The position numbers were made by a program, and so were the translations under genes. From assembly GCA_903833055.1 (NCBI GenBank), contig CAILDU010000048.1, forward strand, positions 1-60,137: 60,137 nucleotides of DNA. Reading direction: 5' to 3'. Positions 9,076-45,560 of the stretch are shown here, in pieces (position 1 is the first letter of the stretch; every line of letters starts with the position of its first letter). A model generated the notes under the pieces. That model was given only the letters and a program-made list of their open reading frames with translations, was not told where the DNA came from and searched no databases. Origin of the DNA: an uncultured Verrucomicrobia subdivision 3 bacterium. Lineage in GTDB: Bacteria; Verrucomicrobiota; Verrucomicrobiia; Limisphaerales; UBA11358.

Positions 9076-9384
9076 GTGCGTATCATCAAAGAGATGTTTC
9101 TGGTGGAGATGGGAAGGAAGCATCCCAAAGCTGCCCGTTATTTGGAAGCATGGCGCACGGTTGTGAAGTCGGCGACGTGGCGAAATTTGGTGGAAGTGCG
9201 CCGGACCTATCCCGGCACGGATTCGGTGAAAATATCAAGCGGTCGTCAAGTGTTGGTGTTTAATGTTTGCGGCAATGACTACCGGCTTATTGTCGCGGTG
9301 CATTTCAACCGCCAGATTGTTTACACTTTGCGCTTTTTGACGCACGCGGAATACAGCAAAGACCGGTGGAAGGCTGAGTTGTAA
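9076..9384 (+). CDS. higB: type II toxin HigB-family mRNA interferase
   Basis: (M)RIIKE..HPKAARYLEAW...W.N..EV...YP..D......VFNVCGNDYRLIVAVHF....VYTLRFLTHAEY is the typical HigB-toxin pattern. The toxin precedes the antitoxin. Confidence 0.85.
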   Translation: MRIIKEMFLVEMGRKHPKAARYLEAWRTVVKSATWRNLVEVRRTYPGTDSVKISSGRQVLVFNVCGNDYRLIVAVHFNRQIVYTLRFLTHAEYSKDRWKAEL

Positions 9385-9457
9385 GACTGTGATAGGTTTG
9401 GAATTTGAAATCAACGCAAAATGAGATGTCTGGCGAGACTTAAACGCATTAAACATA

Positions 9458-9883
9458 ATGAAAACGGCAACACGACTCAACTTTGCAGGAATGCCTAAAA
9501 GTTACACCGGGCTATGCCAGATTCTTACGCCGCGGCCCATTCACGACAAGGTGGATTTTGAGAACGTAACGGAAATTACTGACGCAATGGCCGGCCATAA
9601 ATTGACGGCAGATCAAGAGGACTACTTTGACCTGCTCTGCCAATTGATTGAGAACTACGAAAAAGAACACGGTCAACTGATTGCGCCCAAGGTGACTGGG
9701 CTGGAAATGTTGCAGCATCTTTTGGACGCGCATGACATGAGCGCGGCGGATCTGGCGCGTTTGCTGGAAGTTCACCGGACGCTTGGCGCGATGATTTTAC
9801 GCGGCGAACGCAAGCTGACACTGAATCACGTCCGCACCTTGTCGCGACGTTTTAATGTGTCCGGTGATTTATTTCTTAATTGA
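9458..9883 (+). CDS. higA: HigA-type HTH antitoxin / transcriptional regulator
   Basis: C-terminal Xre-type HTH (GLEMLQHLLDAHDMSAADLARLLEVHRTLGAMILRGERKLTLNHVRTLSRRFNVSGDLFL). It lies directly downstream of higB. Confidence 0.8.
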   Translation: MKTATRLNFAGMPKSYTGLCQILTPRPIHDKVDFENVTEITDAMAGHKLTADQEDYFDLLCQLIENYEKEHGQLIAPKVTGLEMLQHLLDAHDMSAADLARLLEVHRTLGAMILRGERKLTLNHVRTLSRRFNVSGDLFLN

Positions 9884-9901: not shown

Positions 9902-11989
9902 CTACTTCGCATCCATTTTCCAGATGCCGTTCCAATTTTTTGGTGGATTCATGACGAGTTCGGCGCAGCGGGCGGATAAAGTTTTGCTCGGCCCGTCGGA
10001 AAATTCCTTGCCGATGGCGGCGAACATGATTTGCGCCTCGACGAAACGACCGAAGTGGTATTCGTCGAACGCTTTTTTATAGCGCGCGCAAATCTCCGTG
10101 AAGTTCGGCGGCGTGCACGGATTTTCACACTCGAACAATTCCACCGGCTCGCTCTTGCCTTTCACGATGACGCGGTCAATCAAGCGATGCTGACCCTGCG
10201 CGCTGAATTGCGCGAACGCGTCGCGCGTGACGAGCAGCCGCGCGCCGTAAAATTTCGTGAGCGCCTCGACGCGCGCGGCCTCGTTTACGGTGTCGCCGAC
10301 GAGGCCGTAATCGAGTCGCAGCGCCGAACCTTTGTTGCCCACCAACACGCCGCCCGCGTGCAGCGCAACACCGTAACCAAATAGTTTTTGCACTTCCGGC
10401 GTGAGCGTGGCGCGCAAATCTTCCATGGCGGAAATAAGTTTTTGCGCGGCGCGGCTGGCGCGGTCGGCGGCGTCCGGTTGTTTTTGCGGCGCGCCCCAGT
10501 AACTTAAAAATTGGTCGCCAAGAAAATGTTCGAGGTTGCCTTCCTCACCCATGATGGCGCTCGTCTGCGCTTCAAAAACTTGGTTGAGCAAATCGAACAT
10601 TCCTTTCGGGCCGAGCGCCTCGGCGAGCGGCGTGGAGTTTCGCAAATCGGTCAGCAGCAAAACCACGTCGGCGCGGCGCGGTTCCATTGAGCCGGGATCG
10701 GCGAGGACGGCTTCGAGCACGCGCGGCGAAAAATAAAGTCCCATCGTGTGCTTCAATTTCATTCGCTCCAGCCGTTCGACGACGAAATCGTAAACGAAGA
10801 CGACCAAGCCGCTCAACATCAGCACCAGCGTTGGCGGCACGACATGCATGGCTTCATTCGCCGAGCGCAAATGGTTCAATACAAAAAAAGTCAGAAACCA
10901 GTAAGCCGCGGTGACACCGACGACAATCAGCAGGCGTTTGAACGGTTGCTGGACGAGCAGGCAAAGCGCCCCAGCAATCACGCCCGACATGGCGGTTATG
11001 AATAAACAAGCCACCAATGAAGGTGCTTCGAGAAATTCGCCGTGCAGCGCGGCGTTGATAATTTGCAGATGAATTTCCGGCCCGGACATCGCTTTAGGAT
11101 CAAACGGCGTGTCATGAATATCTTGAAAAATTTCAGCGGTCGGGCCGATGAGAATAATTTTGCCCTTAAAAAATTTCCCGTTGTCGTAATTATGTTCCCA
11201 CAATTTTGGCGAAAGCACATCGCCAATGGGATGCGGCTGGTAGCCTTCGCCAGAGCGTGCGGTGTAGCGAAATAACCGGGCATCAAAGCCGGACGGGATG
11301 AGTTCTGGTCGGCCAAATTTGCGGAGCGCGCGGGCATCCATGGATTCGAGGACGGTTTGGGCGGGCAAAACATCACCGATTTGCGCGCCGGTCTGGCGGT
11401 AGCGCGCCCGCCGCAAGATGTCATCAAAATCGGGCCAGATGTTGACGTAACCCAGCCGGTCATCTTCCACTGGCGAATTGGTCTCGCTGATCTGAACTAC
11501 GGATGAATTGGGGAGCTGCAACTCCGTGAAATCACCGCGCCCGGTTTTTTTAGTGCTGATATTGTAGCCAATGATGACGCGGTCTTTGTATTTTTCGAGC
11601 GCGGCGCGCAGTTCGTCGTCGCCGTCGTTTTGCGAGGCGAAAACCAAGTCGAACATAATTACCTTTGCGCCTGCATCGGAAAGTTTTTCGATGAGCCGCG
11701 CCCAAACGGCGCGCGACCACGGAAAAGAATTTTGCAAATTTTTAAGGACGGGTTCGCGGCGAATTTCGTCGTCGCTGAAATCGGCGGCATAAACCGGCTT
11801 GTCAATACCGATGAGGACGAGGCGATCATCCATGGGCGTTTTGCGACCGAGCCGCGCCTGCCAGTCCTGCGCGGAAAATTCCATTTCCTGCAACGGCACA
11901 AACCCGCGCTGCCACAAAAATAAAAACACTAGCGTGCAGACCGCGCAGATGGCGAGGACGATGGCGGTGCGGCGGGCGGCGGGTTTCAT
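9902..11989 (-). CDS. CHASE2 sensor domain / class III adenylate (guanylate) cyclase
   Basis: N-terminal TM, a periplasmic CHASE2-like region, three TM helices, and a cyclase core (VVLLLTDLRNSTPLAE ... HFLGDQFLSYWGAP ... GLVGDTVNEAARVE). Confidence 0.9.
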   Translation of the reverse strand: MKPAARRTAIVLAICAVCTLVFLFLWQRGFVPLQEMEFSAQDWQARLGRKTPMDDRLVLIGIDKPVYAADFSDDEIRREPVLKNLQNSFPWSRAVWARLIEKLSDAGAKVIMFDLVFASQNDGDDELRAALEKYKDRVIIGYNISTKKTGRGDFTELQLPNSSVVQISETNSPVEDDRLGYVNIWPDFDDILRRARYRQTGAQIGDVLPAQTVLESMDARALRKFGRPELIPSGFDARLFRYTARSGEGYQPHPIGDVLSPKLWEHNYDNGKFFKGKIILIGPTAEIFQDIHDTPFDPKAMSGPEIHLQIINAALHGEFLEAPSLVACLFITAMSGVIAGALCLLVQQPFKRLLIVVGVTAAYWFLTFFVLNHLRSANEAMHVVPPTLVLMLSGLVVFVYDFVVERLERMKLKHTMGLYFSPRVLEAVLADPGSMEPRRADVVLLLTDLRNSTPLAEALGPKGMFDLLNQVFEAQTSAIMGEEGNLEHFLGDQFLSYWGAPQKQPDAADRASRAAQKLISAMEDLRATLTPEVQKLFGYGVALHAGGVLVGNKGSALRLDYGLVGDTVNEAARVEALTKFYGARLLVTRDAFAQFSAQGQHRLIDRVIVKGKSEPVELFECENPCTPPNFTEICARYKKAFDEYHFGRFVEAQIMFAAIGKEFSDGPSKTLSARCAELVMNPPKNWNGIWKMDAK

Positions 11990-12100
11990 CGTTTAGTTTT
12001 GGGTGAAAACGTAATGGTGTAGCAGGTTATTCATCGCTGGCAACCTTGACAATTTAATACAGGTGTTAAGTTGTTCTATTGATTCCACGGCGGCGCAAAC

Positions 12101-12949
12101 ATGAAAACTTTTCTTCTTCTGGCCGGCTTGGTCGTTTGCACCCGCGTGTCGGTGCTGGCGGTGACGCCGCTGACAGAAAGCACTTTTACGGAAATCATCC
12201 GCACGGCAGATGTGGTCGCCGCCGCCAATAAATCCGTGACGCCCGCCGTGACGAATAATGTTTTCAAAGCGCCGGACTTGGTTCGCACTGGGCCGGCTTC
12301 GCGCGTGGAAATGACCGCGCCAGATCAAACGATTACGCGCGTCGGGGCAAACACAGTTTTCACTTTTGAGCCGGGCGGCAGAAATATTTTATTGGAAAAA
12401 GGCAGCGTGTTATTTCATCCGCCCGCCGGTGTCGGCGGCGGCACGGTTCGGTATCGCGGCACGGCGGCGGCGGTGCTGGGGACGACGATGATTTGCGTGG
12501 TGCTGCCGGACGGCAGTTTCAAAATTCTCGACCTCGAAGGCCATGTGCAGGTGACGCTGAAAAACAATACTCAAATTTTGCTGGAGGCCGGGCAGATGGT
12601 GATTGTGTCGCCGGATGGAAATGTGTTCAGCGACGTAATGGTTTTTAATCTCCAAGAACTTGCATCGCGTTTGTTACTGGTCGTAGGTTTTTCAAATCCA
12701 TTGTCCTCGCTGCCGTTCATTGCCACGGCGATTCAACTGCAAAACGACCAGATTCTCGCTGGCACATTGCCCAACCTCGTGTCGTTTTTGGTAGCCAGCT
12801 TGGGGCTGGAAATAATGCCGCTCCGAAATTTGCCGCCGTGGATGGTGAACGCGCCCGACCACACGCAGGTTTATGTTTCGCCGGTCACTACGTTTCCCAT
12901 TCCCAACCAGCCGTGGTATTTCGATGTTCACCACGACTTCGACAATTGA
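12101..12949 (+). CDS. secreted FecR-domain protein (paralog 1)
   Basis: Signal peptide MKTFLLLAGLVVCTRVSVLA. FecR-like core RVEMTAPDQTITRVGANTVFTFEPGGRNILLEKGSVLFH. Confidence 0.8.
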   Translation: MKTFLLLAGLVVCTRVSVLAVTPLTESTFTEIIRTADVVAAANKSVTPAVTNNVFKAPDLVRTGPASRVEMTAPDQTITRVGANTVFTFEPGGRNILLEKGSVLFHPPAGVGGGTVRYRGTAAAVLGTTMICVVLPDGSFKILDLEGHVQVTLKNNTQILLEAGQMVIVSPDGNVFSDVMVFNLQELASRLLLVVGFSNPLSSLPFIATAIQLQNDQILAGTLPNLVSFLVASLGLEIMPLRNLPPWMVNAPDHTQVYVSPVTTFPIPNQPWYFDVHHDFDN

Positions 12950-12984
12950 CAAGCTCGGCGTATTCCACTAGAAATTTTCTTAAT

Positions 12985-13863
12985 ATGAAAAACGAATTTT
13001 TGTTATTCGTCGCCTTCGCCAGCTTGGCACTCCCACTCGTTGCCGCGCCGCTGACGGAAAGCACGTTCACGGAAATCGTCAATGACGTGAACACGGTGTC
13101 CGCTACTGGTGACGCGACGACGGCGAAGTCGGGCGACGTTTTGAAAGCGCCGCAGCGCGTTCGCACCGGTCCGTCGTCGCGTGCGGAACTTACCGCGCCG
13201 GATAAGACGATTACGCGCGTCGGCGCAAATACGGTTTTTTCCTACGCAGACAGCGGACGCACATTGAATTTGGAACAAGGCAACGTCCTCTTTCACGCGC
13301 CAAAAGGTCTCGGCGGCGGCACGATTAAATCCGGCGGTGCGGCGGCGGCGGTGCTCGGCACGTCGTTGATTGTATCAGCGACAACCGGCGGCGGGTTCAA
13401 AGTAATTTTGCTGGAAGGCAAAGGCAAAGTGACTTTGCCAAATGGAAATTCCGTTACGCTCAAAGCCGGACAGGAAGTTTTTGTGCTGCCGGGCGGAACG
13501 GAATTCAGCAAAGTTTTCACCATCAATTTGGACAAGCTCGTCGCCGGTTCGCAATTGGTGAAAGGTTTTTCGCATGACCTCTCGTCGTTGCCGCTGATTC
13601 TGCTCGCCGTTCAAGATCAAGATTCGCAAATCAAATCCGGCGCATCGTCGGACACCGGCCAGCCGCCGGAATTTTTCCTGCCGCCGTCGCCACCGGGCAA
13701 CGGCCAAAACGTCCTCGACCCCGCCACCTACAACACGGCGGCGCACTCGCCGCTGAACAACCGGCAGTTCCGTTCGCTAAATAACAACCCCAACCAAGGC
13801 ACGCCGCCGAGTAACGTCGGCCCCGGCGGTCGACCGTTTGGCAGCACTGGATTCCGTGGATAA
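12985..13863 (+). CDS. secreted FecR-domain protein (paralog 2) with a Pro/Gly-rich tail
   Basis: Start at the ATG at 12985 (MKNEFLLFVAFASLALPLVA). It shares PLTESTFTEI and RAELTAPDKTITRVGANTVFSY...GNVLFH with paralog 1. Confidence 0.8.
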   Translation: MKNEFLLFVAFASLALPLVAAPLTESTFTEIVNDVNTVSATGDATTAKSGDVLKAPQRVRTGPSSRAELTAPDKTITRVGANTVFSYADSGRTLNLEQGNVLFHAPKGLGGGTIKSGGAAAAVLGTSLIVSATTGGGFKVILLEGKGKVTLPNGNSVTLKAGQEVFVLPGGTEFSKVFTINLDKLVAGSQLVKGFSHDLSSLPLILLAVQDQDSQIKSGASSDTGQPPEFFLPPSPPGNGQNVLDPATYNTAAHSPLNNRQFRSLNNNPNQGTPPSNVGPGGRPFGSTGFRG

Positions 13864-13881
13864 TTTTTATATTTTCATTTT

Positions 13882-14910
13882 ATGAGCCTTAAAAAATATT
13901 TCCTCACGGCGGCTCTGGGATTGGTCGCGAGCGTGAGCGCCTTCGCACAAATGCCGAACGCCAGTCAGCAAGTGGATTCGCTACAACAGCGCCGCCAGTT
14001 GGAACAGTCCGCGCAAATGATGATTGCCTCCAACGCCGTGCCGGAACTTTACAGCGGCGAATCCAGCGATGTCGGCCCGCAGTCCGTGCTGCAAACCAAA
14101 ACGCGCCGCACTTACTTTCAGGCGTTTGCCGACGCGCAGTATTTCTACACGGACAACATGTTTCTCGCGAATCAGAAGAAGCAGGGCGCGGATGTCCTCG
14201 TCAGCACCGTGCAAGCCGCGCACGCGCCAACCGCGTATGATTTTGCGGACGGAAAATTTTCGCCGCGCCTCGGCTTCCAGCAGCAATGGTTCAACTACGG
14301 TTTGACCGGCCCGCAAACGGTGGATGCCTACAATTTCAGCACCCACACTTTCAGCCGCGCCAACCTTGACCAGTTTGATTTCAACGCCATGACCATTTTC
14401 AGCGACGTATCATGGAGTAAACAAAATTGGACTTTCACCGCTGGTGGTTTTTACCGCCAGCTCAACGACGCGCAAAACACCGACCAGTTTTATAACGAAT
14501 ACGTTCCGAACTGGGCGATTCGCTATGATTTATTTACGAGCGATAAAACCGCCTTGTCCATCGGCTACGAAGGTGATGCGCGCCTGACCGATACCGCCAG
14601 CGTGCCGCCGAAGACCGGTAGCAATTTTAACAACCGCGTGGACAACAGCCTCGTCGTCGCCGGCAGTTGGCGCTTGTGCCGCTACGCGATTTTGCAACCG
14701 TCCTACCGTTTTCAACAAACCCATTTCACCACCACTTGGCGCGATGATTATCTGAATTCTTTCGGCCTTGCGCTCTACATTCCGTTCAACGACTACGTCA
14801 CCCTGCGCGGCTACGTCAGCTACGACATTTTGAAGACCGATGGCTTCTACGTGGAAAACAGCGACACGCTCAACGCCGGTGTCGGCTTGAATCTCACTGT
14901 TCGTTTCTGA
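13882..14910 (+). CDS. putative outer-membrane beta-barrel protein
   Basis: Signal peptide ending AFAQ, alternating aromatic/polar beta-strand pattern, and a C-terminal LNLTVRF (terminal Phe). Confidence 0.65.
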   Translation: MSLKKYFLTAALGLVASVSAFAQMPNASQQVDSLQQRRQLEQSAQMMIASNAVPELYSGESSDVGPQSVLQTKTRRTYFQAFADAQYFYTDNMFLANQKKQGADVLVSTVQAAHAPTAYDFADGKFSPRLGFQQQWFNYGLTGPQTVDAYNFSTHTFSRANLDQFDFNAMTIFSDVSWSKQNWTFTAGGFYRQLNDAQNTDQFYNEYVPNWAIRYDLFTSDKTALSIGYEGDARLTDTASVPPKTGSNFNNRVDNSLVVAGSWRLCRYAILQPSYRFQQTHFTTTWRDDYLNSFGLALYIPFNDYVTLRGYVSYDILKTDGFYVENSDTLNAGVGLNLTVRF

Positions 14911-14917
14911 AATAAAT

Positions 14918-16504
14918 TTACTGCGCCGCGACCGGCGGCTTGTGGTAAGTGTGACACTCCGCGCAAGTGTCCGCCACGCCGCCACGCGGACTGTGGCACG
15001 TCGCGCATGTTTCCTTCGTGGGCAACAAAATATCCGCCGTGTTTTTACTGTGAACCGCGTCATGGCATTGCGTGCAGGCAATGTTTGTATGCTTCGCGTG
15101 ATTAAATTTCGCCTGCGCCAGCCAGCGTTCCGTCAGGATTGGCTTCGTAATTTCCGGCAACCCCGCGTTGGAATTTTTCACCTCGTGGCAATACGCACAG
15201 CCCGGAAAAATCGCGCGCGTCGCGCCACTCACATTCCCCACAATTATTTCCGGCGCAGTCGTAGCTGTGCTGAAGAAAATCCGTTTTTCCAAATCCTCGC
15301 CGCTGCCAAATTGCGTCCGTAAACCAGCGAGTTTCTTCGCTACGAAACCGTTCGCGTCTTCATCCCTGCCAGTCTGCGCGACTAAATTCATATATTGATT
15401 TGGCAGACTCCGTAAAAACGCCGACACAAATTCCGCGCTGCCATGCGGTAGTTGCAATTCCGGTGTTTGCGGATCGAATTGTAGCGAGTGACAAACGCGG
15501 CAGTTCGGCTCGAACGCCACCGGCTTCATGAACGCGCCCGCCGCATCCGGCGAATGACAAAACGCGCAGTCCAGCTTCGCGCCGCCGGGCAATTTCGGAA
15601 TCGTCGCGCCCGTCAGATGCAGCGCGTGATTAAATTTCAACGTGTCCGGATCGCGCAATTTTTCCGTGATAAAACGAAACTGCGGATGGTCGTCCGCAAA
15701 ATGGTTGATTGTTTCCGCTTTCCGCTTTCCGCTTTCCGCTTTTACCCCCGCCATCTTCGTCGCGTCGGCGTGGCAGAAATTGCAGTTCGCATCCGTCGTC
15801 GCTGCAATTTTTATTCCCTGATGTTCCGCGTGGCAGAATGTGCAGGAAATTTGCGCCGCATCCGGCTGATGCACATTTTTACCCGCGTGACATTTCAAGC
15901 ACGACGCATCAATCGCCGTTGGCTCGGCAGCTTTGGCGAGCGCGAGCTTCTTCAAATCCCAAATTCCCGGCTCCGCGTGCAGCGCAACATTTGCCATCCC
16001 ATTCGGTCCCAAATTCCCCGCGACGTGACACGCGCCACAGTTTTGATTCAAGTGATTCGTCACCGCCAGCGCCGCGAACGCCGCGCCGGAATGCGGACTG
16101 GAAATTGTTCCGGGGCTGATGAAATTATTCCGCCACGGCGGATTGCCCAGCACAACCAAAAGCACCGCGCACGATGCCGCGATGACCGCGAGCGTCACGC
16201 GCCCGCGCCAGACGCGCAACGTCGGCACCGGCGAACATTTGGCAATTGGCCGACAGCAACTTCCATTCGGCAGCGGGCCGGACTCGCATTCGCCGCCGGT
16301 GCGCGTGCAAATCCAGCGGCCTTTCGTTTCGCCTTCTTTAACTTTCAGGACGGGTTTGCACTCGGCGGTTGCGCGACAATTTCCTTTTTGATCCGGCCCA
16401 AGCCGACACGCATTGCCTTCGCACGCGTGACCGCAAATCCAGTTTTGATTTGGCCGCGCGTAGTTATGCGCGTCAAAATCCGGCGCGGGCAGTTGCTCGC
16501 TCAT
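14918..16504 (-). CDS. membrane-anchored decaheme c-type cytochrome with a Cys-rich N-terminal domain
   Basis: Ten CxxCH motifs: CGACH, CLKCH, CTFCH, CNFCH, CAFCH, CRVCH, CAYCH, CTQCH, CATCH, CAECH. One TM helix (VTLAVIAASCAVLLVVL) follows about 95 residues containing 10 Cys. The start at 16504 overlaps the upstream stop (ATGA). Confidence 0.9.
   Translation of the reverse strand: MSEQLPAPDFDAHNYARPNQNWICGHACEGNACRLGPDQKGNCRATAECKPVLKVKEGETKGRWICTRTGGECESGPLPNGSCCRPIAKCSPVPTLRVWRGRVTLAVIAASCAVLLVVLGNPPWRNNFISPGTISSPHSGAAFAALAVTNHLNQNCGACHVAGNLGPNGMANVALHAEPGIWDLKKLALAKAAEPTAIDASCLKCHAGKNVHQPDAAQISCTFCHAEHQGIKIAATTDANCNFCHADATKMAGVKAESGKRKAETINHFADDHPQFRFITEKLRDPDTLKFNHALHLTGATIPKLPGGAKLDCAFCHSPDAAGAFMKPVAFEPNCRVCHSLQFDPQTPELQLPHGSAEFVSAFLRSLPNQYMNLVAQTGRDEDANGFVAKKLAGLRTQFGSGEDLEKRIFFSTATTAPEIIVGNVSGATRAIFPGCAYCHEVKNSNAGLPEITKPILTERWLAQAKFNHAKHTNIACTQCHDAVHSKNTADILLPTKETCATCHSPRGGVADTCAECHTYHKPPVAAQ
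15713..15740. repeat. heptanucleotide micro-array (TTCCGCT)x4
   Basis: Four perfect tandem copies. In frame on the minus strand they encode KAESGKRKAE just after heme motif 4. Confidence 0.95.
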
Positions 16505-17316
16505 CGCGCACCTCCGGAAAATCCAAAGACCAAAATAATGTGTAGCGCGGTGAAAATCATCAGTCCGTAAGTCAGCGGAATGTGGACGAACAGCCACAAT
16601 CGCAACGCGAGTTGCAGCGCGCGGTGATAATCCAATCCGTCTTTCTGGCGGACGAGCGCGGTAAGTTTCTCAATCTTTTCTTTTTCCGCGTCGTTGGCAA
16701 AACGGCGCAGGTCGTCGAGTTCCGCGAGCAGCACGCTCACTTCACGCCGCGACTCGGCCAGATGGTTCCAGAAATTTTTCGGGCCGGCGAAAAATGGCGC
16801 GAGGCGTTTCGTGTAAAATTCCGCGATGACCAGTGATTTTGCATCCGCGCCGAGTGCCAGAGTTTCCGCTTCCGTTTTCAATGCATGACGAATGGTGGGA
16901 ATTTTTTCAAAGACAACTTCGCCGCCGCGCGTCGCGAGCCGACGCGGCAAAACACGGCTGAAAAATAATCCGACCATGCCGCTGCCGCTAACCAGAACGA
17001 ACAGCCACGCGAGCACGACCTCAAACCAGCCGTGCGGCGCGCGAAAATTCAGGTGGATGAGAAACAGCAGCGTTGTGAAAAAGCCGAGGTAGATGTGGAT
17101 TTGCAGCCACGTCTCAGATTTGCCGAGCGGCAGGAATGGCAGTTTTTTCCGCACGTTGTAGATCGTCAGCACGAACATTCCCGCGAGCAGCGCCCAGCCG
17201 GTGAGGTAAGCGTAATTCGGTAGCGCATTGTATTTTGCATTCAGCCACAACGCTCCTGCAGTTGCGGCAATCAGCGCGAGCAAACCAAAAATAAATTGTT
17301 GGCGGAAGCGATTCAT
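16501..17316 (-). CDS. polytopic membrane protein with two intramembrane His-x13-His pairs (candidate di-heme b cytochrome)
   Basis: The start at 17316 (MNRFRQQF) overlaps the upstream stop (ATGA). There are five hydrophobic helices. HIYLGFFTTLLFLIH and HIPLTYGLMIFTALH each lie within a TM helix. Confidence 0.7.
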   Translation of the reverse strand: MNRFRQQFIFGLLALIAATAGALWLNAKYNALPNYAYLTGWALLAGMFVLTIYNVRKKLPFLPLGKSETWLQIHIYLGFFTTLLFLIHLNFRAPHGWFEVVLAWLFVLVSGSGMVGLFFSRVLPRRLATRGGEVVFEKIPTIRHALKTEAETLALGADAKSLVIAEFYTKRLAPFFAGPKNFWNHLAESRREVSVLLAELDDLRRFANDAEKEKIEKLTALVRQKDGLDYHRALQLALRLWLFVHIPLTYGLMIFTALHIILVFGFSGGAR

Positions 17317-19037
17317 AACTTCAGCCACTTCGAAAGCGCATCGAGATTGTTCAGGTTCATTCGCTCCAAAGCGCCGTGCGGACACGCACGTTCGCACGCG
17401 GGGCCACCGTGGTTTTCCACGCAGAGATCGCACTTCGTCGCCTTCGCGATGGGTTTCATTTCCTGATCCACGAGCAGTTCGCCGCGTTCGTCGCGCGCCT
17501 CGACCATGCGGATGGCGTCGTAGGGACAATTCGTAAAACAGGATTTGCAGCCGATGCACGTCGCGGGATTGATGACGACCTGGCCGGCGAATGACTCGCG
17601 ATGGATCGCACCGGTCGGGCAGCCGATCATGCAAACCGGATCGGCGCAGTGCATGCAGGCATTGGCGATCATCAGCCGCCCGGCGCTCGGGCCGTGGCGC
17701 AGGAAGCGCGGGTTGTTGTCGTGCGTGGAGGCGCAGGCGCGCACGCAATCGTCGCAACGCGTGCAGCGGTCGAGGTCAATGACCATCGTGGCCGTGCCGT
17801 TGAAGAAACGGTTCTCGGTGAGAAATTCCAAAATCTCCGCGCCAACTTTTTCGCGTGTGGCGATTTCGGGTGGCGCGGAATCCAAATCGTCTTCAACTTT
17901 TTCGACGGGCGGTGGCAGTTCGTTTTTCGGCAGCGACGGCAAAACAATTTCCTCCATCACGCGCGTCGGCACGATGAGCAAATGCGTGTAGCCGATGGCG
18001 CGGAGCGAGAACTGCATATTCACCGCCGCATCTTTGTTGCGCCAGTTGTGGGCAATTTCGTTTAGCCCAAAAATTTGTCCCGCGCCGATGTAGTTCAGCG
18101 TGCGTTCGCCGCCGCCGAATTTCTGGCTGACGCGCGCGAAGCCGGCGCGCAGCAAAACGATTCCGTTCGGATAATCACCTTCGCCAACAATGACGGGCTC
18201 TTTCTCCGGTCGCACGCTGCCGGATTGCGCGAGGCGTTTGTATTCACCCGACCAGTCGTAGTCGCCATAGGTCGAAAATTCCACGGCCTCGGCCACGCGG
18301 TCGAGTTGTTCCTTCGAGAGATTTTTGAACAGCGGCGTGGCGCGGAGATACGAGGCCAGCGCGCGTTCGCGGTAAATTTTATTGATGTGTGTGCGGAGCG
18401 CGTCGTCGTATTTCATAAGGTCGCGCAGACCTTGCCAGCGGATTTCCAAAAGTTCCGCGTCGTCGCTGTCGGCAAAAATTGTGGACGTGCGCGCCATGCG
18501 GCTCAACGCGGCGATTTCGCCGAAGAATTCTCCCGCGAACATTTCCGCCGTGCGGTGCTGATCCAAAATGCGCGGCACGTCCTGCAAAAAAACGCGCGTC
18601 TCCTTTTCATTTTGTCGCGCGCTGACGCCGGAACTTTGCCCGAGCAAGGTGCGCGGCAACATTTCCGGCGGACGCGAACGGTTCCAAAGCTGCGCGAGCG
18701 TGCGGAAGACGCCTTTTTTATTGGTCGCCTGACGACCGAGCAACGACGGCGGGAGATCAGGTTTCAACACTACGCGCGCCGCGCCTTGCAAAATCAGAAA
18801 CGCCGACGTGCCGTAATCGCCCTGACGCATGATGATTTCGCCTTTGCGAAATTTCAGAATGCGCGCGTCGTTGCGGAGGATTTCGCGGAGCGGCGTGCGT
18901 TTGGGAAATTTTTCGGCATCCATCCCACTGAACGGCACGGTCAGAAGCAGACGGCTCACGTCTTCGTCGGTCATGTTCGCGTCGAACGCGGCGTCCCAGC
19001 GTTGCGGGCGTTCGAGAATGGTCGGGGCGGCGGGCAT
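17313..19037 (-). CDS. tandem cyclic-nucleotide-binding domains fused to a four-cluster [4Fe-4S] ferredoxin (DmsB/NrfC-like)
   Basis: cNMP phosphate-binding cassette FGEIAALSRMARTSTIFA and a second CNB-like domain. Four Cys groups: CTRCDDCVRAC, CMHCADPVCMIGCP, CIGCKSCFTNCP, CDLCVENHGGPACERACP. Confidence 0.9.
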   Translation of the reverse strand: MPAAPTILERPQRWDAAFDANMTDEDVSRLLLTVPFSGMDAEKFPKRTPLREILRNDARILKFRKGEIIMRQGDYGTSAFLILQGAARVVLKPDLPPSLLGRQATNKKGVFRTLAQLWNRSRPPEMLPRTLLGQSSGVSARQNEKETRVFLQDVPRILDQHRTAEMFAGEFFGEIAALSRMARTSTIFADSDDAELLEIRWQGLRDLMKYDDALRTHINKIYRERALASYLRATPLFKNLSKEQLDRVAEAVEFSTYGDYDWSGEYKRLAQSGSVRPEKEPVIVGEGDYPNGIVLLRAGFARVSQKFGGGERTLNYIGAGQIFGLNEIAHNWRNKDAAVNMQFSLRAIGYTHLLIVPTRVMEEIVLPSLPKNELPPPVEKVEDDLDSAPPEIATREKVGAEILEFLTENRFFNGTATMVIDLDRCTRCDDCVRACASTHDNNPRFLRHGPSAGRLMIANACMHCADPVCMIGCPTGAIHRESFAGQVVINPATCIGCKSCFTNCPYDAIRMVEARDERGELLVDQEMKPIAKATKCDLCVENHGGPACERACPHGALERMNLNNLDALSKWLKL

Positions 19038-19055
19038 TTTCAGTTCGGAATTGTG

Positions 19056-20363
19056 TTAAGCATCCAAAACCAAATCGTTTTTCGGGCGGCAAACACAGGT
19101 GAAACAACTGCCGGCTTCCGGCGTAGCGTCAGGCTTCTTCAAATAATCCACGTCGCCGGATTTAATGGCGACGACGCACGAACCGCAACTGCCCGCGCAG
19201 CAGCCGGAATCAATTTTTACGCCCTGCGCTTTCGCAAATTCCAAAATATTTTCCGCCGACGGCTCCCAGCGCACGGTTTTATTTGAGCGCGCGAACGTCA
19301 CATTTATTTTTGCGAGATGAACCGTTTCGCTCGGCGTGGGCGCGGCCGTTTTTTTCTTCACCGTCGCCGGACCGAACGCTTCGAAGTGGACGACGCTGTC
19401 CGGCACGCCCCACGCTTCGAGGCCGTCGGTCAGACTTTTCATGAACGCGCCACTGCCGCAGAGGTAATATTCAAAATTATTCGACGGCAGAATTTCCTTC
19501 AAAAGCTCAATGCCCACGCGGCCTTCGTGATGAAAATCTTTTCCCTTCACGTCTTTGTCGCTGGGTTTGCTGTAAGCGATATGCAGATGAATGTTGTCGT
19601 TTTCCGCCGCGAGTTTTTCCAACTCGGCCTTGTGAATGTGTTCGCGGACATTGCGGACGCCGAAGAAAAAATACGCCTCACGCTTCGAGCCGCTCGCGGC
19701 AATCGCGTTCGCCATGCTCAACATCGGCGTGATGCCGACGCCGCCCGCGAGCAGCACGATGGGATTCGACTTGGCCATGTCCAAAAAGAAATGGCCGGTC
19801 GGCGCTTTGACATTCAGGATGTCGCCTTCCTTCACCACGTCGGTAAAAAAACTGGAGCCTGCGCCCGGCGGCAACTCCGGTTTGTCTGGCGGCGATTTTT
19901 CCTTTTTGATCGTGACGCGGTAATATTCTTTTTGATGCGGACTGTCGGAAAGCGAGTAGCAGCGGATGAGCGGTTTGTCGCGTCCGGGCACATCGAGTTG
20001 AAACGTGAGATACTGGCCGGGCTTGAATTGCGGCAGCGGGCGACCGTCGTGCGGCTTCAAATAAAACGCGTTCACGTCCTCGCACTCGGGATTTTTTTTG
20101 ACGACGGAAAATTTTCGTAAACCGTTCCAGCCGGTCTGCGCCTGTTCGGCCTCGCGGCAACGGATTTTGGTTTCGGCGAGTTGGGCGCGCAGTTTTTCCA
20201 ACGCGACGCGTTGCTGGCGGTTTTCGGCCCAAACGCGAAGGAGCGAGCGGAAAATTTCCAACGTCAGCCACGCGAGCAGTCCGGCGAGCAGCGCAAAGCC
20301 GACGGCGAAGCTCAAACTGTCTCCGCTGACTTGCCGCAGGGAATCAATTAGGGTTGCATTCAC
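19056..20363 (-). CDS. membrane-anchored FNR-like FAD/NAD(P)H oxidoreductase with a C-terminal 2Fe-2S ferredoxin domain
   Basis: N-terminal TM plus coiled coil. RCYSLSD (FAD), GGVGITPMLSM (NAD(P)H) and CCAGSCGSC...CFTCVC (plant-type 2Fe-2S). The start codon at 20363 is GTG, so the start is uncertain. Confidence 0.88.
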   Translation of the reverse strand: MNATLIDSLRQVSGDSLSFAVGFALLAGLLAWLTLEIFRSLLRVWAENRQQRVALEKLRAQLAETKIRCREAEQAQTGWNGLRKFSVVKKNPECEDVNAFYLKPHDGRPLPQFKPGQYLTFQLDVPGRDKPLIRCYSLSDSPHQKEYYRVTIKKEKSPPDKPELPPGAGSSFFTDVVKEGDILNVKAPTGHFFLDMAKSNPIVLLAGGVGITPMLSMANAIAASGSKREAYFFFGVRNVREHIHKAELEKLAAENDNIHLHIAYSKPSDKDVKGKDFHHEGRVGIELLKEILPSNNFEYYLCGSGAFMKSLTDGLEAWGVPDSVVHFEAFGPATVKKKTAAPTPSETVHLAKINVTFARSNKTVRWEPSAENILEFAKAQGVKIDSGCCAGSCGSCVVAIKSGDVDYLKKPDATPEAGSCFTCVCRPKNDLVLDA

Positions 20364-21535
20364 GCTGCCACTCCATTAACCAATTTGTCGCCGTGAGTAA
20401 AACAATTTGTCACCCAGCCGCAGGTTTTGTCGCCGGAATTATTCTGGCGGCGAACATTTCCAGTGGCGCGGAAACGCCGCCCAAATTTCTCGGCGCGAAT
20501 TCCTGCGCCAATTCCAGTTGCCACGGCGGCGGTGGCGCGAAACAAAATCAGTTTCTCGTCTGGTCGCTCAAGGATTTTCATTCGCAACGCCCCGCCGCGA
20601 CGCTTACGACGGCGCGCTCGAAGCAAATCGCCGACGCACTGGAAATCAAAGACCCGTCCGCCAGTTCCCGTTGCACGACTTGCCACGCGCCGTTACGTGA
20701 CGTGCCGGAAAGTCTGCGCGGTGAAAATTTCAAGGTGAGCGAATGCGTTTCGTGTGAAAGCTGCCACGGCGCGGCGGAAAATTGGTTGCGCGCGCATACG
20801 CGACACGATTACACGCGCGCCGACCGCACTGCCGCTGGAATGCGCGACTTGCAAAATCTTTACGTCCGCGCGAACACCTGCATCGCGTGCCACCAGAATG
20901 TGGACGCCGACATTCTCAAGGCCGGGCATCCGGAATTAATTTTTGAACTCGACGGCCAGAGCGTCGCCGAACCGAAACATTGGTGCGCGGAGAAAAACGG
21001 CAACGGCGCGCAGGCTTGGCTGGTTGGTCAGGCCGTGGCATTACGAGAAATGAGCTGGCAACTAGCCAATGAAAAATCTCCGACAGAAAGTGAAATCAAC
21101 CGATGGAATGCGCTTGTTTGGCTGATGCAGACGGCCGCGCCGGAGAGCAATTTGAAAATGCCGCCAAAAACCAGAGCCGTTACGATTGCCTACGCTGCCA
21201 GCACCCTTCAAGGCGAAAGTGACCAAGTTGCGCGTGACTTCGCAACGACTGACTGGTCGGATACAAAGACGAGTAAGATTTTGTCTGCATTCGCCAATTC
21301 AAACGAGTCGTTCCGCGACACGGCCGTTTCGCAAAATCTCCAAGCCCGCCGCGCCGAGCGGCTGGTGCTCGCGCTCGACCGCCTCGTCGCCTCGCTGCCG
21401 GAGTATAAAAACAACGAGCCAATGCAATCGTCGCTCAATCAACTTTTCAAACTCGCGCAATCCATTCCCGACTTCGACCCCAAAGAGTTTGCCGCCGCGC
21501 TGGAGAAACTTTCCGCCGCGCTCGCCGCGCATTGA
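20354..21535 (+). CDS. secreted multiheme c-type cytochrome (3 CxxCH plus 1 Cx4CH)
   Basis: CANSSCH, CTTCH, CESCH and CIACH. The ORF-track start (TTG at 20354) overlaps the divergent gene. GTG at 20393 (VSKTICHPAAGFVAGIILAANISSGA) is a more plausible signal-peptide start. Confidence 0.8.
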   Translation: MHSRCHSINQFVAVSKTICHPAAGFVAGIILAANISSGAETPPKFLGANSCANSSCHGGGGAKQNQFLVWSLKDFHSQRPAATLTTARSKQIADALEIKDPSASSRCTTCHAPLRDVPESLRGENFKVSECVSCESCHGAAENWLRAHTRHDYTRADRTAAGMRDLQNLYVRANTCIACHQNVDADILKAGHPELIFELDGQSVAEPKHWCAEKNGNGAQAWLVGQAVALREMSWQLANEKSPTESEINRWNALVWLMQTAAPESNLKMPPKTRAVTIAYAASTLQGESDQVARDFATTDWSDTKTSKILSAFANSNESFRDTAVSQNLQARRAERLVLALDRLVASLPEYKNNEPMQSSLNQLFKLAQSIPDFDPKEFAAALEKLSAALAAH

Positions 21536-31914: not shown

Positions 31915-33378
31915 TTACAAGGCCGGATTGCGCGGGAATTTGGCATACGGCAAACGCGTGCCACGATATTCCATTTGGTCGGCGCGAATTGAAATGGGCG
32001 CGGGAAACAACGCCGCGCCGCTGGCGGAAATCAAATCGTCCTGATCCACGCCGTCGCCGCTCACGCCAATCGCGCCGATCAAAACGCCGTTGCGATAGAG
32101 CGGAAAGCCGCCGGGGAAAATCGTGATGCCGTTCGGCACGGCAGCATTCACGTTGGTCATCGTAGAAAAAACCGCGCCATTCAAGGGGTTTGTGAAAACA
32201 AGCGAGCTGGCGGTGACGCTGGAATTGGTTTCCTGCGCGCCGAGCAGCGGGCCGGGCAACGTGCCGTTGATGCCGGGCGGATAAAAACTTTGCGCGAGAA
32301 AACCGACGGTGCGCGTGGAGCAGGCGGTGTTCGATGCTGAATACAGCAGGGCTGTGCGCGCCTTCTGCACACAGACATCCCAACTGAACCGCGTCGTGTT
32401 GGGCGACGTGCAAAATGTGCCGAGCACGATGGGCGTCGCGTCGTCCACGCCGGGATTATTGACGACGGTGATAAACACTTCCGCCGGTTGGCCGGGCGGC
32501 AAACGGATGCCGGCGCGCGTGGTGCGACAACGGTTCGCGGCGGCGGTGATGATATCGAGAACCTCAGTGTCCGTCAGTCGCGCGGCGCCGAGCGGCACGA
32601 ATGACGGATCGTTAATAATGGGTTGGCGCACCTCGCCGGTTTCGCCGCCGATGGTCGCCACGGGATACGCAAATGGCGCGGGCGAATTGGTGAGCGTGAA
32701 CGGTGAAATTTCCATTCCCGGCAAACTGGCGAAAGAAATTACGTTTGTCAGTTTGGTTTTAGTTTCGATGTATTCCAGCCGGATGCCCGCCGCCAAAACT
32801 TTCGAGCCAAGAATTTTATTGGGCGGCGCAAAACCGATTTGTCCCGCGAGCGCGACATCTTCATCGCTGTCCGGTTTGGTGATACGGGCGGGCGTGATGT
32901 TTGTCGGCGCGACGAGTGTGAGGCCGGGCGAACTGCCATAAGTAATGACGCTGCCGGGCGCTTTGAATTTATTGATGTCGGAAAAGCTGAGTTGCGAAAA
33001 ATTCACGCCGACGAGTGGACCGGGCGGCTTGTTGCGGATGCCAATGGGAAAATGTTGCTGCACGATGTCGCCTGCGGTGCGCGACGAAAAAGCATTGTTA
33101 TCACTGCTCAAAAACGCAGCCGTGCCGGCTTTGGCGATGGCTTCGGCAACGAGATTATCATCGCCGAGCAAATTTGTGTTCAGCGACCAGACGCCGAGCA
33201 CCCAGCCTTCGCGGTCGGTGACAGCGACGACGGCGTTCGTGTTGAGCATCGGCAGCACGGTCGCGCGCGTGACCGCCTGCGCGATGACGGTCTGGACATC
33301 AGCGAGTGTAAGTTGAGCGGACGCCGTTCGCGCAACCAGCACGGCGAAAAGCAAAATTGGAAAAATCCGTTTCACCAC
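31915..33378 (-). CDS. secreted protein with GlcG/DUF336-like (haem-degrading-family) segments
   Basis: Signal peptide MVKRIFPILLFAVLVARTASA. N-terminal AVVAVTDREGWVLGVW and C-terminal GGFPLYRNGVLIGAIGVSGDGVDQDDLISASGA resemble the two halves of a GlcG domain, separated by about 300 aa. Confidence 0.55.
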   Translation of the reverse strand: MVKRIFPILLFAVLVARTASAQLTLADVQTVIAQAVTRATVLPMLNTNAVVAVTDREGWVLGVWSLNTNLLGDDNLVAEAIAKAGTAAFLSSDNNAFSSRTAGDIVQQHFPIGIRNKPPGPLVGVNFSQLSFSDINKFKAPGSVITYGSSPGLTLVAPTNITPARITKPDSDEDVALAGQIGFAPPNKILGSKVLAAGIRLEYIETKTKLTNVISFASLPGMEISPFTLTNSPAPFAYPVATIGGETGEVRQPIINDPSFVPLGAARLTDTEVLDIITAAANRCRTTRAGIRLPPGQPAEVFITVVNNPGVDDATPIVLGTFCTSPNTTRFSWDVCVQKARTALLYSASNTACSTRTVGFLAQSFYPPGINGTLPGPLLGAQETNSSVTASSLVFTNPLNGAVFSTMTNVNAAVPNGITIFPGGFPLYRNGVLIGAIGVSGDGVDQDDLISASGAALFPAPISIRADQMEYRGTRLPYAKFPRNPAL

Positions 33379-33431
33379 ACGGCGAGCATAAGCGCTTGCT
33401 TTCCGAAAATAAACAATTTCTCATTGGGCAA

Positions 33432-35630: not shown

Positions 35631-35677
35631 AATTTGCGTAATGAAATTAAATCGGACAAACTCACGGTAAATGCCGG

Positions 35678-38600: not shown

Positions 38601-39538
38601 TGCTCGACGGCAATCCTGACAATAATTATTTCGATAAGGAAAAAATTATCCGCTTCAATCCGGATGGAAAACTTTCCGGCGCGATGCACAGTTTCATGGC
38701 GGGAACGAATCTTTACGTCGTCGGCAAAAACGGATTGTTTGTGGTCGGTCTGCGTAATGACGCACTCGAAGCGCCAATGTTGGCGGGCGAATTGACCGAC
38801 GGTTTAAAAAATCCGCGCGCGGTCGGCGTGCAATTCCGTTATGCGTTTGTGACGGACGATGAAGGTTTCAAAGTCCTTGATGTCACCGAGCCGACGAAAC
38901 CGAAATTGATTCCCGGCGCCTTCGTGCCGCTCAAAAACGCGCAGCGGTTTTATCTCGCGCGCACTTACGCCTACGTTGCGGATGGTGCGGATGGATTGGC
39001 GTTCATTGACATTTCCAATCCGGAAAAACCGAAACTGGAACGGCTTTACAACGCCGATGGAAAATTGAACGACACGCGCGCGGTGCAAATCGGTTCGGTC
39101 AATGCGTCGGAATTTGCGTTCGTTGCGGATGGGAAAAATGGATTGCAAATCTTGCAGATGATTTCGCCGGAAAATGTTCCGGGCGCGATGGGTTTTAGTC
39201 CCGCGCCGAATCCAAAACTCATCTCAACATTCCCGACGCGCGAACCGGCGGTGGCGGTCGGTCGCGGGCTTGACCGCGACCGCGTGGTGGATGAAAGCGG
39301 AAATCAAACGGTCGTGTTCGGACGCAAGGGTTCACGTCCGTTTAATCTCGCCGAGATGAAAAAGTTTTACGAGCGCGATGGTGAACTTTACACGGTGGAA
39401 AATGTTTTTTCGCGCGATGGAAAACTGGTCACGCGCAGTGGCGATGAGTTGAAACCGACAGCGGAATTTCAATCCGAAACGCAGGAAGCCATTGCACCAC
39501 CGAGTAATAATGAGCGTTTGCTGCGGCGCGGCGAGTAA
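35678..39538 (+). CDS. decaheme c-type cytochrome fused to a C-terminal LVIVD-repeat (beta-propeller-like) region
   Basis: Signal peptide. Ten CxxCH motifs: CLECH, CTDCH, CAPCH, CTACH, CMNCH, CADCH, CIDCH, CQVCH, CFGCH, CEDCH. C-terminal repeats [58 protein letters not shown]. Confidence 0.88.
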
Positions 39539-45300: not shown

Positions 45301-45560
45301 AAACCGCAGACGACCAAGAGATAGCTCGCCACGTCGCGCACTCGTTCCTGCGCGTTTTCAAATTTAAAAAGCCATTTCAACAACGCCGCCGAGCCGAGCG
45401 CGATGAGCGTATTGCCGACGGCGGTGATGACCATGAACCAGCCAAACGGCACGCCGCCAAAAAATAAAAATAGGAACGCGCCGAGCGTGATAGCGAGCCA
45501 GTAGCGATAACCCAAAATAAAAACCACCGCCAACGCCAGCCCCGCCAGCGGCCAGAACAA
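42366..45560 (-). CDS. MASE1-PAS hybrid sensor histidine kinase with receiver(s) and an HPt domain; the 5' end is possibly frameshifted
   Basis: A multi-TM MASE1-like N-terminus, PAS, HisKA (SEFLANMSHEIRTPL), HATPase, a receiver (ILAAEDHPFNRK...ILMDCNMPELDG) and HPt (AAHSLKGLLALFG). The called start is TTG. An upstream ORF (to 45682) looks like the missing N-terminus in another frame. Confidence 0.9.
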   Translation of the reverse strand: MFWPLAGLALAVVFILGYRYWLAITLGAFLFLFFGGVPFGWFMVITAVGNTLIALGSAALLKWLFKFENAQERVRDVASYLLVVCGFGAALNAALNAAGLACENRISWDALLPNMLAWWVPNALAVLVLPPFFIVWTSRSLWHWNFRKGAEAFVCAAGLIASTLVAFNTWFVYGIHNYPLVYLPVPFLLWGGFRFGPRGAVAGTMMAASMVVYFFLHGRGPFLTDDDLGGLRLFGVYICVTALVNLLLAAIATERQRAEINLAENEKRLRTVVADQSDLICRFLPDGEITFVNQAFCEFHGQTEAQLLGSDFFQLLTIAETKTLRDNLAALPADRPVCSFDRRAVAAAGHVEWQQCNIRRFTHDSGKHFEYQAVIQNITSRKQAELAVQEAKAALEKTNLQFQIAAKEANAAAAQANRANAAKSEFLANMSHEIRTPLSGILGMIELLSQTRLDPRQKEFAAAAAASANALLHVINDVLDFSKIEAGKMNIAQENFSLRDIVDGVLENASTREPEKKIHLAAIVRRNVPHRLIGDPVRLRQVLLNLVGNGVKFTERGEVIIRVQPITHAQGRIKLRFEITDTGIGLTPEQTHKLFQPFMQADTSSSRKFGGTGLGLAISRKIIELMGGRIGVHSAVGTGSTFWFELPFAVPPQSAIERSFPGLVFERVLIAAPNASLRESLAERLRGWGVDCSEVATATELLRTLRHDIRSTILPVVLCDDEMLELGGAALRTLLMEQRGRVQCILLAGPTATLGDEQNDLAQFANVLLKPAREQSLFDALVNVVAGKKPEALRPVRLPGDTEIIARETVVKTTPISNLRILAAEDHPFNRKLWQLMLDGFGVKADWTENGREAVNKFSSGTYDAILMDCNMPELDGHEATAEIRKIETEKNISPRVRIIAITANALVGERERCLAAGMDDYLPKPFTSQQLYQSLLAAVPARSASDKIFDDGQIEQLCNDLGRAAVCDMAADFVNELPDRLKEIHRLHAAAHWPDLKRAAHSLKGLLALFGFRPLSEMLQTVEDAAEVSDANSAGETLASLDAQAEKALVHLRDWRQKQPVAR

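Follow-up and report, generated by a model that had tools for sequence, protein, structure and literature searches.

Among described systems, the closest relative of the locus considered here is the ptdABCDEFG gene cluster, which was named in a 2024 preprint (bioRxiv 10.1101/2023.11.21.568154) and which the accessible parts of that source describe in silico only. They present PtdA as a pentahaem cytochrome with a beta-sandwich, PtdB as a porin, PtdC as an FAD/NAD(P) oxidoreductase, PtdD as a tetrahaem cytochrome, PtdE as a cyclic-nucleotide-binding 4Fe-4S protein, PtdF as a ferric-reductase-like membrane protein and PtdG as a decahaem cytochrome; Table S7 of the preprint covers 20 marine or saline genomes, with Nitrospina, Nitrospirales, Tistlia consotensis and Roseibium aggregatum among the carriers (bioRxiv 10.1101/2023.11.21.568154). 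On the side of signal input, CHASE2 receptors pair with secreted FecR-domain proteins (PMC5192318, PMC5498481), and in S. meliloti the outer-membrane (OM) receptor NsrA works with the CHASE2 adenylate cyclases CyaK, CyaD1 and CyaD2 (PMC7529298). The analyses reported here concern a stretch of 60,137 nucleotides (the window, meaning the whole of the DNA analysed; contig CAILDU010000048.1 of assembly GCA_903833055.1) from an uncultured Verrucomicrobia subdivision 3 bacterium, in which genes of the ptdC, D, E, F and G types stand next to a CHASE2 cyclase and its FecR-domain and putative OM partners. On balance we favour the reading that the window carries a Verrucomicrobial variant of Ptd, in which cyclic nucleotide from a dedicated sensor embedded in the cluster switches or tunes electron flow.

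The sensor module and the ptd genes are laid out as follows.

9902–11989, minus strand: CHASE2 sensor and class III nucleotidyl cyclase, 695 aa (Pfam CHASE2 1.2e-39, Guanylate_cyc 4.3e-09)
12101–12949, plus strand: secreted FecR-domain protein 1 (Pfam FecR 2.2e-06; signal-like N-terminus)
12985–13863, plus strand: secreted FecR-domain protein 2, a paralogue (Pfam FecR 1.5e-10; signal peptide from the MKNEF... start)
13882–14910, plus strand: 342-aa putative OM protein of the sensor module (signal peptide, C-terminal ...LTVRF; no significant Pfam match)
14918–16504, minus strand: PtdG, membrane-anchored decahaem cytochrome c (ten CxxCH; multihaem cytochrome Pfam families)
16501–17316, minus strand: PtdF, membrane protein of 271 aa with five transmembrane (TM) helices, putative di-haem b cytochrome (four invariant His)
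17313–19037, minus strand: PtdE, tandem cyclic-nucleotide-binding (CNB) domains and a four-[4Fe-4S] ferredoxin, 574 aa, cytoplasmic (Pfam cNMP_binding 5e-22, several stretches; Fer4_7/Fer4_11)
19056–20363, minus strand: PtdC, membrane-anchored NAD(P)H/FAD reductase with C-terminal 2Fe-2S domain (Pfam FAD_binding_6, NAD_binding_1, Fer2)
20354–21535, plus strand: PtdD, secreted c554-like tetrahaem cytochrome, divergent from ptdC (Pfam Cytochrome_C554 2.5e-08)

All nine open reading frames (ORFs) of a preliminary description of this region were found where it had placed them, and each of its domain assignments holds in a Pfam search of the proteins; its start for the second FecR gene (12838) gives way to 12985, the most likely one, from which the signal peptide runs. 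The decahaem gene probably starts at 16504, and ptdD may have an alternative start, a GTG at 20393. The order C-E-F-G is co-linear on one strand, with ptdD divergent; PtdE/PtdF and PtdF/PtdG are joined by ATGA start/stop overlaps, the gap between ptdC and ptdE is 18 nt, and the sensor and ptd modules converge at 14910 and 14918, with 7 nt between their stop codons. The arrangement goes far beyond chance, for dozens of genomes share this gene set.

The ptd core in the window and in other genomes

We assign the co-linear four-gene operon and the divergent cytochrome gene to ptdC-E-F-G plus ptdD, membership being judged from composition and gene order as matched against the description in the preprint. 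The preliminary description had known of no characterised system with this composition; the composition proves to have been named already, as ptd, but it is still uncharacterised. A literature search for a characterised homologue surfaced the ptd preprint alone, and an NCBIfam scan of all the proteins gave no equivalog model for any Ptd protein. The accessible parts of the preprint make no mention of cyclases or of a link between them and the Fe-S subunit with its CNB domains, and the literature search turned up no other paper that describes one.

Against its counterparts at loci with the complete A-B-C-D-E-F-G order, the window's PtdE is 47–52% identical (over 98% of its length), PtdC 40–51% and PtdF 33–45%; PtdD is 25–32% identical to its homologue from other phyla, which is encoded between C and E. 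PtdA and PtdB are absent from the whole window, as judged by tblastn with six PtdA-like (family f5) and six PtdB-like (family f6) proteins. The PtdE family comprises 5117 proteins at E<=1e-10 among the scored candidates and 576 clusters (50% identity) at E<=1e-30, and gives at least 591 matching stretches in a one-genome-per-species collection. The core is both widespread and uncharacterised; it forms hundreds of sequence clusters and is known from Verrucomicrobiota, Planctomycetota, several proteobacterial classes, SAR324, Nitrospinota and others.

For the comparison of neighbourhoods, 80 ptd loci were fetched with 10-kb flanks, and homologues were found in them by tblastn with the window proteins. 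The sample comes from Verrucomicrobiota, Planctomycetota, Alpha-, Gamma- and Zetaproteobacteria and SAR324, and takes in Ca. Uabimicrobium amorphum (Planctomycetota) and the isolate Hwanghaeella grinnelliae (Alphaproteobacteria, L046). Alongside PtdE, PtdF was detected at 78 of the 80 loci, PtdG at 76, PtdC at 73 and PtdD at 69, and several of the loci without one core gene are contig ends. The view that the four-gene operon is one conserved unit, put forward in the preliminary description, withstands this comparison across the 80 loci and at least five phyla.

Clustering of all ORFs of the 80 loci revealed two layouts. The first, PtdA> PtdB> C> D> E> F> G>, occurs in Proteobacteria, Planctomycetes, SAR324 and some Verrucomicrobia and matches the published order; the second, D< C> E> F> G>, without PtdA and PtdB, occurs in most Verrucomicrobia. 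The window shares the C, D, E, F and G types with ptdABCDEFG as the accessible parts of the preprint describe it, and departs from it in several respects. It has no PtdA pentahaem cytochrome and no PtdB porin, with genes for an HbpS-like protein, a ~750-aa putative OM protein and a decahaem/LVIVD protein in their stead; its ptdD is divergent, whereas in proteobacterial and planctomycete loci ptdD stands between C and E; and it carries the embedded CHASE2 cyclase/FecR/OM-protein sensor. In addition, its PtdE has four 4Fe-4S motifs where the preprint gives two, and its host belongs to a freshwater or soil Verrucomicrobial lineage, unlike the marine or saline hosts of the preprint.

PtdC begins with a TM helix. 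The nearest solved relative of its FNR module is the flavohaemoglobin reductase module (1.7e-53); phthalate dioxygenase reductase matches it at full length, and its C-terminal plant-type 2Fe-2S domain resembles the counterpart in that enzyme. PtdE has no export signal, and its C-terminal 150 residues contain the four Cys motifs of a HycB/DmsB-type ferredoxin (HycB, HydN and DmsB matches, 1e-17 to 1e-12), shared also with NrfC and HybA; all sixteen cluster-ligating Cys are invariant in the family alignment. PtdE differs from such subunits in being cytoplasmic, without a Tat signal and fused to a tandem CNB, and in having a membrane partner that is not of the NrfD or DmsC type. Natural PtdE–PtdF fusions exist (P0162).

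The N-terminal part of PtdE resembles the regulatory domains of cyclic-nucleotide-dependent kinases. Its AlphaFold2 (AF2) model (predicted local distance difference test, pLDDT, 86.5; predicted TM-score, pTM, 0.83) has as best PDB fold matches the tandem CNB-A/B of PKA-R and PKG (residues ~40–370, E 1e-17 to 1e-15, probability 1.0), with TM-scores that are low (0.2–0.4) because the domain arrangement differs. CNB1 has a canonical FGE...R[TS]A phosphate-binding cassette, in which G173 is kept in 37, E174 in 31 and R183 in 35 of 38 diverse members (82–97%). The differences from PKA-R and PKG are that the output of PtdE is an Fe-S domain and not a kinase, that CNB1 carries an insert (~70 residues) and that the CNB2 cassette is longer. 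Some PtdE relatives carry one or two FHA domains (P0126, P0130, P0155, P0215); together with the FHA-cyclases found beside ptd (L054, 10308–11486), these hint at an added phospho-threonine input.

PtdF combines its five TM helices with a 115-residue cytoplasmic insert. Residues H74, H88, H245 and H259 are invariant (58 and 34 sequences) with 14-residue spacing within two TM helices, and this fits the di-haem b pattern of two pairs on two TM helices at a spacing of 13–14 residues. PDB sequence and profile searches with PtdF were empty, and its AF2 model, built on a shallow alignment (pLDDT 73, pTM 0.57, weak TM region), gave nothing below E=0.85 in Foldseek against PDB.

In PtdG all ten CxxCH motifs are invariant in 52 homologues. 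Its N-terminal ~100 residues (16204–16504), on the cytoplasmic side, hold eight further Cys that are invariant in the same homologues and are followed by a single TM helix; the spacing of these Cys is not that of a standard Fe-S motif. The periplasmic decahaem cytochrome of the preliminary description thus keeps its ten haem motifs, but has a cytoplasmic N-terminal domain and a TM anchor as well. The divergent cytochrome PtdD has three CxxCH and one CxxxxCH, and is therefore counted as tetrahaem.

The CHASE2 sensor and the cyclases beside ptd

Aligned with OaPAC and the bacteriophytochrome–adenylate cyclase fusion (PDB 6fht), the window's cyclase keeps the two metal-binding Asp and the transition-state Asn and Arg (motifs TDLR, LGD, VN and AAR). 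Its orthologues are numerous (63–89% identity). In class III cyclases the substrate is specified by a pair of residues, Lys with Asp/Thr for ATP and Glu with Cys/Ser for GTP; at the first of these positions the other ptd-adjacent cyclases carry Lys, Glu, Asp or Ala.

The preliminary description had seen in the cyclase, FecR and OM-protein genes an envelope-spanning input device, and the CHASE2/FecR modules and the NsrA system provide the precedent for it: the window shares with them a CHASE2 cyclase that has FecR-domain proteins of the periplasm encoded beside it, and a small OM protein, the likeness to NsrA being one of components and not of sequence comparison. The known outputs of those systems are transcriptional (Clr) or two-component, whereas the nearest CNB receiver in the window is an electron-transfer subunit. 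The 342-aa protein was first described as an OM barrel; a signal peptide, a C-terminal Phe and sub-threshold BBP2_2 and OMP_b-brl matches (Pfam on nine members, with a PDB profile search also run) allow us to keep it as a putative OM protein. Members of its family occur with FecR and cyclase in L004, L005, L008, L074, L081–L083 and L087, in L074 far from ptdG, and since they travel with these genes we regard the protein as part of the sensor. We also considered it as a PtdB-type porin, or outer end of the electron path, and rejected this: it co-varies with FecR and cyclase and has no similarity to PtdB.

The module adjoins ptdG in L002–L005 and, in partial form, in L008; other arrangements are found in L017, L042 (Luteolibacter) and L074 (Puniceicoccaceae). 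In six relatives (L002, L005, L081, L082, L083 and L087) it is embedded between ptdG and the genes of families f10, f8 and f9, which encode the HbpS-like, ~750-aa and LVIVD-decahaem proteins. Seven cyclase orthologues (L081–L087, 63–75% identity) were looked up, and all seven are accompanied by a FecR gene. Four of them (L081, L082, L083 and L087) stand in the order D< C> E> F> G> OMP< FecR< (FecR<) CYC>, where OMP is the 342-aa protein family and CYC the cyclase, followed by HbpS-like, ~780-aa and LVIVD-decahaem genes, so that redox genes lie on both sides of the sensor; L081–L083 have an NHL-repeat gene in this supercluster as well. Two others (L084 and L086) are without ptd, the cyclase there adjoining an ABC exporter with a C-terminal cNMP_binding domain, plus FecR, and the seventh (L085) shows cyclase and FecR only, at a contig end. 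Both settings are combined in L042, one of the 80 ptd loci, as G> CYC> ABC-CNB> FecR<; the pairing with the exporter is recorded at 12102–14321 in L084, 12150–14381 in L086 and 16490–18679 in L042. The subfamily is regularly encoded beside a CNB-domain effector, which fits a local logic of cyclase to CNB effector.

Cyclases beside ptd are not confined to this type. An iterated hidden Markov model (HMM) search with a Pfam check found class III cyclases within 10 kb of ptdE at 15 of the 80 loci, or 16 with an ambiguous match in L073 (found by our own iterated HMM only, Pfam giving an FHA fragment). Six cyclase architectures are represented: besides the CHASE2-cyclase, these are a 7TMR-DISMED2/7TM-cyclase in SAR324, a REC-cyclase-Metallophos protein in Zetaproteobacteria, an FHA-cyclase in Tepidisphaeraceae, a cyclase-AAA16-TPR protein in Alphaproteobacteria and, in four planctomycete loci, a cyclase with an uncharacterised N-terminal region that is divergent from ptdC. 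The REC-cyclase-Metallophos gene, which follows the Zetaproteobacterial ptd cluster in L050 (14715–16946), unites a cyclase and a possible phosphodiesterase in one protein. Adjacency of a cyclase to ptd, which could have been peculiar to the genome first described, thus recurs in its relatives and in other phyla.

As a control, 628 flanking genes were put through the same procedure and gave 17 cyclase-domain genes, as against three with REC, two with HATPase and nine with ABC ATPase domains. Of the 17 cyclases, 14 are no more than two genes away from the cluster, compared with 44% of all flanking genes, and the three farther ones are CHASE2 cyclases parted from the core mainly by their own FecR and OM-protein partner genes. 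That unrelated sensor architectures converge on one catalytic domain speaks for a functional link between cyclase and Ptd, for which the CNB domains of PtdE would be the obvious receiver.

A possible electron path, its outer end and its control

The system reaches beyond the region first described, as the window also contains the genes that stand beside the ptd core in its relatives.

31915–33378, minus strand: HbpS-like secreted protein, family f10 (Pfam HbpS-like 6.2e-16)
33357–35630, plus strand: ~750-aa putative OM protein, family f8 (no Pfam match; ends ...AITFTY)
35678–39538, plus strand: 1286-aa secreted decahaem cytochrome with LVIVD beta-propeller, family f9 (ten CxxCH; Pfam LVIVD 3.8e-17)

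Verrucomicrobial loci of the second layout often have f10, f8 (~750–800 aa) and f9 (~1300 aa) directly alongside the core. The window's f10 is 46–53% identical to genes beside ptdG or the cyclase in relatives, its f8 44–62% identical to core neighbours in L007, L010, L019, L021, L025 and L038, and its f9 62–72% identical to core neighbours in relatives. The ~750-aa putative OM protein and the 1286-aa decahaem/LVIVD protein (33.4–39.5 kb) are the likelier outer partners of the electron path.

From the cofactor ligands and the domains we infer the following order of carriers. At the inner membrane, PtdC would oxidise NAD(P)H and, by way of FAD, reduce its own 2Fe-2S cluster, from which the electrons would go on to the four [4Fe-4S] clusters of cytoplasmic PtdE. 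They would cross the membrane via two b-type haems, with the four invariant His of PtdF as ligands; next would come the ten haems of PtdG, anchored in the membrane, and then the soluble tetrahaem PtdD, which would probably hand them to an outer module: here the putative OM, decahaem/LVIVD and HbpS-like proteins, and in Proteobacteria and Planctomycetes presumably PtdA and PtdB. The CHASE2 cyclase, with its periplasmic FecR partners and the small OM protein, may sense an envelope or external cue and make the cyclic nucleotide, and its binding to the PKA-R-like tandem CNB of PtdE would then switch or tune electron flow or assembly of the complex. Outward flow, the acceptor to which it would lead, and gating by the nucleotide are all parts of this proposal. 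We hold more tentatively the stricter version, that PtdE is a second-messenger-gated wire in which nucleotide on the CNB directly turns on or off a path that leads from NAD(P)H to multihaem cytochromes independently of quinone, with the co-encoded cyclase as the source of the nucleotide; this is possible, but falls somewhat short of an even chance.

Several observations weigh against the reading of the window as a Ptd variant under cyclic-nucleotide control. At about 80% of ptd loci the 10-kb flanks contain no cyclase, and the locus and cyclase counts are not phylogenetically independent. A dedication of the window's cyclase subfamily to ptd had to be rejected, three of the seven orthologue contexts (L084, L085 and L086) being without ptd. 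In the motif NLEHFLGD of the cyclase (10600–10700) a His takes the place of the substrate-specifying Lys, with Gly at the second position, and this is conserved in the subfamily. Because of the His the product is not predictable from sequence, so that the cAMP or cGMP output of the preliminary description cannot be upheld as stated, and the gating nucleotide in this lineage may be a non-canonical one. On the receiving side, the CNB2 cassette of PtdE is ~18 residues longer and non-canonical (R346 in 27 of 38 members), and CNB-fold domains elsewhere bind ligands other than cyclic nucleotides. The haem-b assignment of PtdF is putative, based on its invariant His and on Pfam matches below gathering scores among 34 members (DUF4405 in 20, best 7e-06; Ni_hydr_CYTB, for prokaryotic cytochrome b561, in 10; Ferric_reduct in four). 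In the window f10, f8 and f9 (31915–39538) are split from the core by ~10 kb of housekeeping genes. Finally, the function of the cluster 'remains completely unknown' according to the accessible parts of the preprint (bioRxiv 10.1101/2023.11.21.568154).

The absence of a cyclase from most loci, the occurrence of the same subfamily away from ptd, the non-canonical CNB2 and the unclear nucleotide specificity also suit the strongest alternative, in which the two modules are independent neighbours. The CNB domains of PtdE would then bind a ligand other than the cyclase product, or be structural, and the sensor would serve a CRP-type regulator or the CNB-ABC exporter. We consider this unlikely, given that the module is embedded among ptd-system genes in six relatives, that six unrelated cyclase architectures in several phyla outnumber the normally commoner REC and histidine kinase domains, and that the CNB1 cassette is canonical and conserved; even away from ptd, in L084 and L086, the cyclase adjoins a CNB protein.

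Comparison with other redox systems bears on where the electrons would go. As in NOX/FRE and Fre-MsrQ, a cytoplasmic NAD(P)H flavoreductase would feed a membrane protein, whose two His pairs (in PtdF) would hold two stacked haems, and there are weak Pfam matches of PtdC to NAD_binding_6 and of PtdF members to Ferric_reduct. Ptd differs from NOX/FRE in that its subunits are separate, with a 2Fe-2S and four 4Fe-4S clusters interposed, and in that PtdF, with its five TM helices and cytoplasmic insert, has no significant Pfam match and no fold match. With MtrCAB, Geobacter Pcc and the Verrucomicrobial porin–multihaem cytochrome cluster of He et al. 2017 (PMC5615132), Ptd shares multihaem cytochromes, a putative OM protein and a proposed outward flow; it differs in an inner-membrane entry that is NAD(P)H-linked and not a quinol dehydrogenase. 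The cluster of He et al. 2017 further differs in its octahaem periplasmic cytochrome (PMC5615132). As for homology to the MtrA/B/C and OmaB/OmbB families, the Pfam search gave generic multihaem matches only (Mtrc-MtrF_II-IV 23.9 bits, with a cut-off of 30), and neither f8 nor the 342-aa protein falls into a Pfam family.

This lack of MtrAB or Pcc porin–cytochrome homology is compatible with a second alternative, in which the Ptd core serves not extracellular transfer but, in the style of Fre-MsrQ-MsrP, a reductase of the periplasm that is engaged in detoxification, repair or nitrogen-oxide chemistry and receives its electrons from NAD(P)H; the terminal enzyme would be PtdA elsewhere and the decahaem/LVIVD protein here, and nucleotide control may still apply. 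The accessible parts of the preprint place PtdA in the NrfA COG, liken PtdC to flavohaemoglobin reductase and report ptd in nitrite oxidisers (bioRxiv 10.1101/2023.11.21.568154), the best solved relative of the window's PtdC being of the same kind, and an HbpS-like protein belongs to the cluster. However, each of the two cluster variants includes a porin or putative OM protein, the analysis identified no catalytic site, and the c-type haems number at least 24 (10 in PtdG, four in PtdD and 10 in f9), which is more typical of long-range conduits; a periplasmic reductase thus seems to us somewhat less probable still than independent neighbours. A complex running inward would reduce NAD(P)+ at the expense of a donor outside the cell or in the periplasm, for instance Fe(II), reduced humics or nitrite-derived electrons. 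It would suit lithoautotrophic carriers dependent on reverse electron flow (Zetaproteobacteria, represented by L050, and, from Table S7 of the preprint as far as accessible, Nitrospina and Nitrospirales), but is highly improbable, as the cluster has no ion-translocating or energy-coupling subunit, transfer against an inside-negative potential to a low-potential acceptor would be unfavourable on bioenergetic grounds, and the carriers here are mostly heterotrophic Verrucomicrobia and Planctomycetes.

If Ptd takes NAD(P)H electrons across the inner membrane to multihaem cytochromes and bypasses the quinone pool, abundant heterotrophs of fresh water, soil and the sea would have in it a new entry to electron transfer into the periplasm or out of the cell. 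The recurrence of cyclases beside a CNB-bearing Fe-S subunit leads to the testable idea that a second messenger controls electron flow and not expression alone; if true, a respiratory or extracellular electron-transfer chain would for the first time be seen under allosteric control by a cyclic nucleotide, in a family present in at least five phyla, and the orphan CHASE2/FecR sensor class would gain a likely receiver. Cultured carriers are Hwanghaeella grinnelliae and, from the accessible Table S7, Tistlia consotensis and Roseibium aggregatum.

Genes around the system

The flanking genes (among them HigB, CvfB, RNase R, KamA-like, SurA-like, PGDH, GH63, MASE1 kinase and sigma54 regulator) were judged unrelated. 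The neighbours directly beyond the cyclase gene, at 9076–9883, are a gene for a toxin of the HigB type (Pfam 2.9e-23) and its partner ORF of 141 aa; this site may mark a rearrangement point, because in relatives the rest of the supercluster stands there. An ORF of 1138 aa on the minus strand at 5493–8909 matches no Pfam family at E<=1e-4. At 42366–47234 a MASE1-PAS hybrid histidine kinase, which has receiver and Hpt domains, and a sigma54-dependent response regulator are encoded divergently; the pair adjoins the GH63-like gene, and a GH63-like gene also flanks the ptd supercluster in L082 and L083. At 55279–58503, on the plus strand, a 1074-aa protein has type III restriction helicase domains together with an Mrr-like restriction endonuclease domain.

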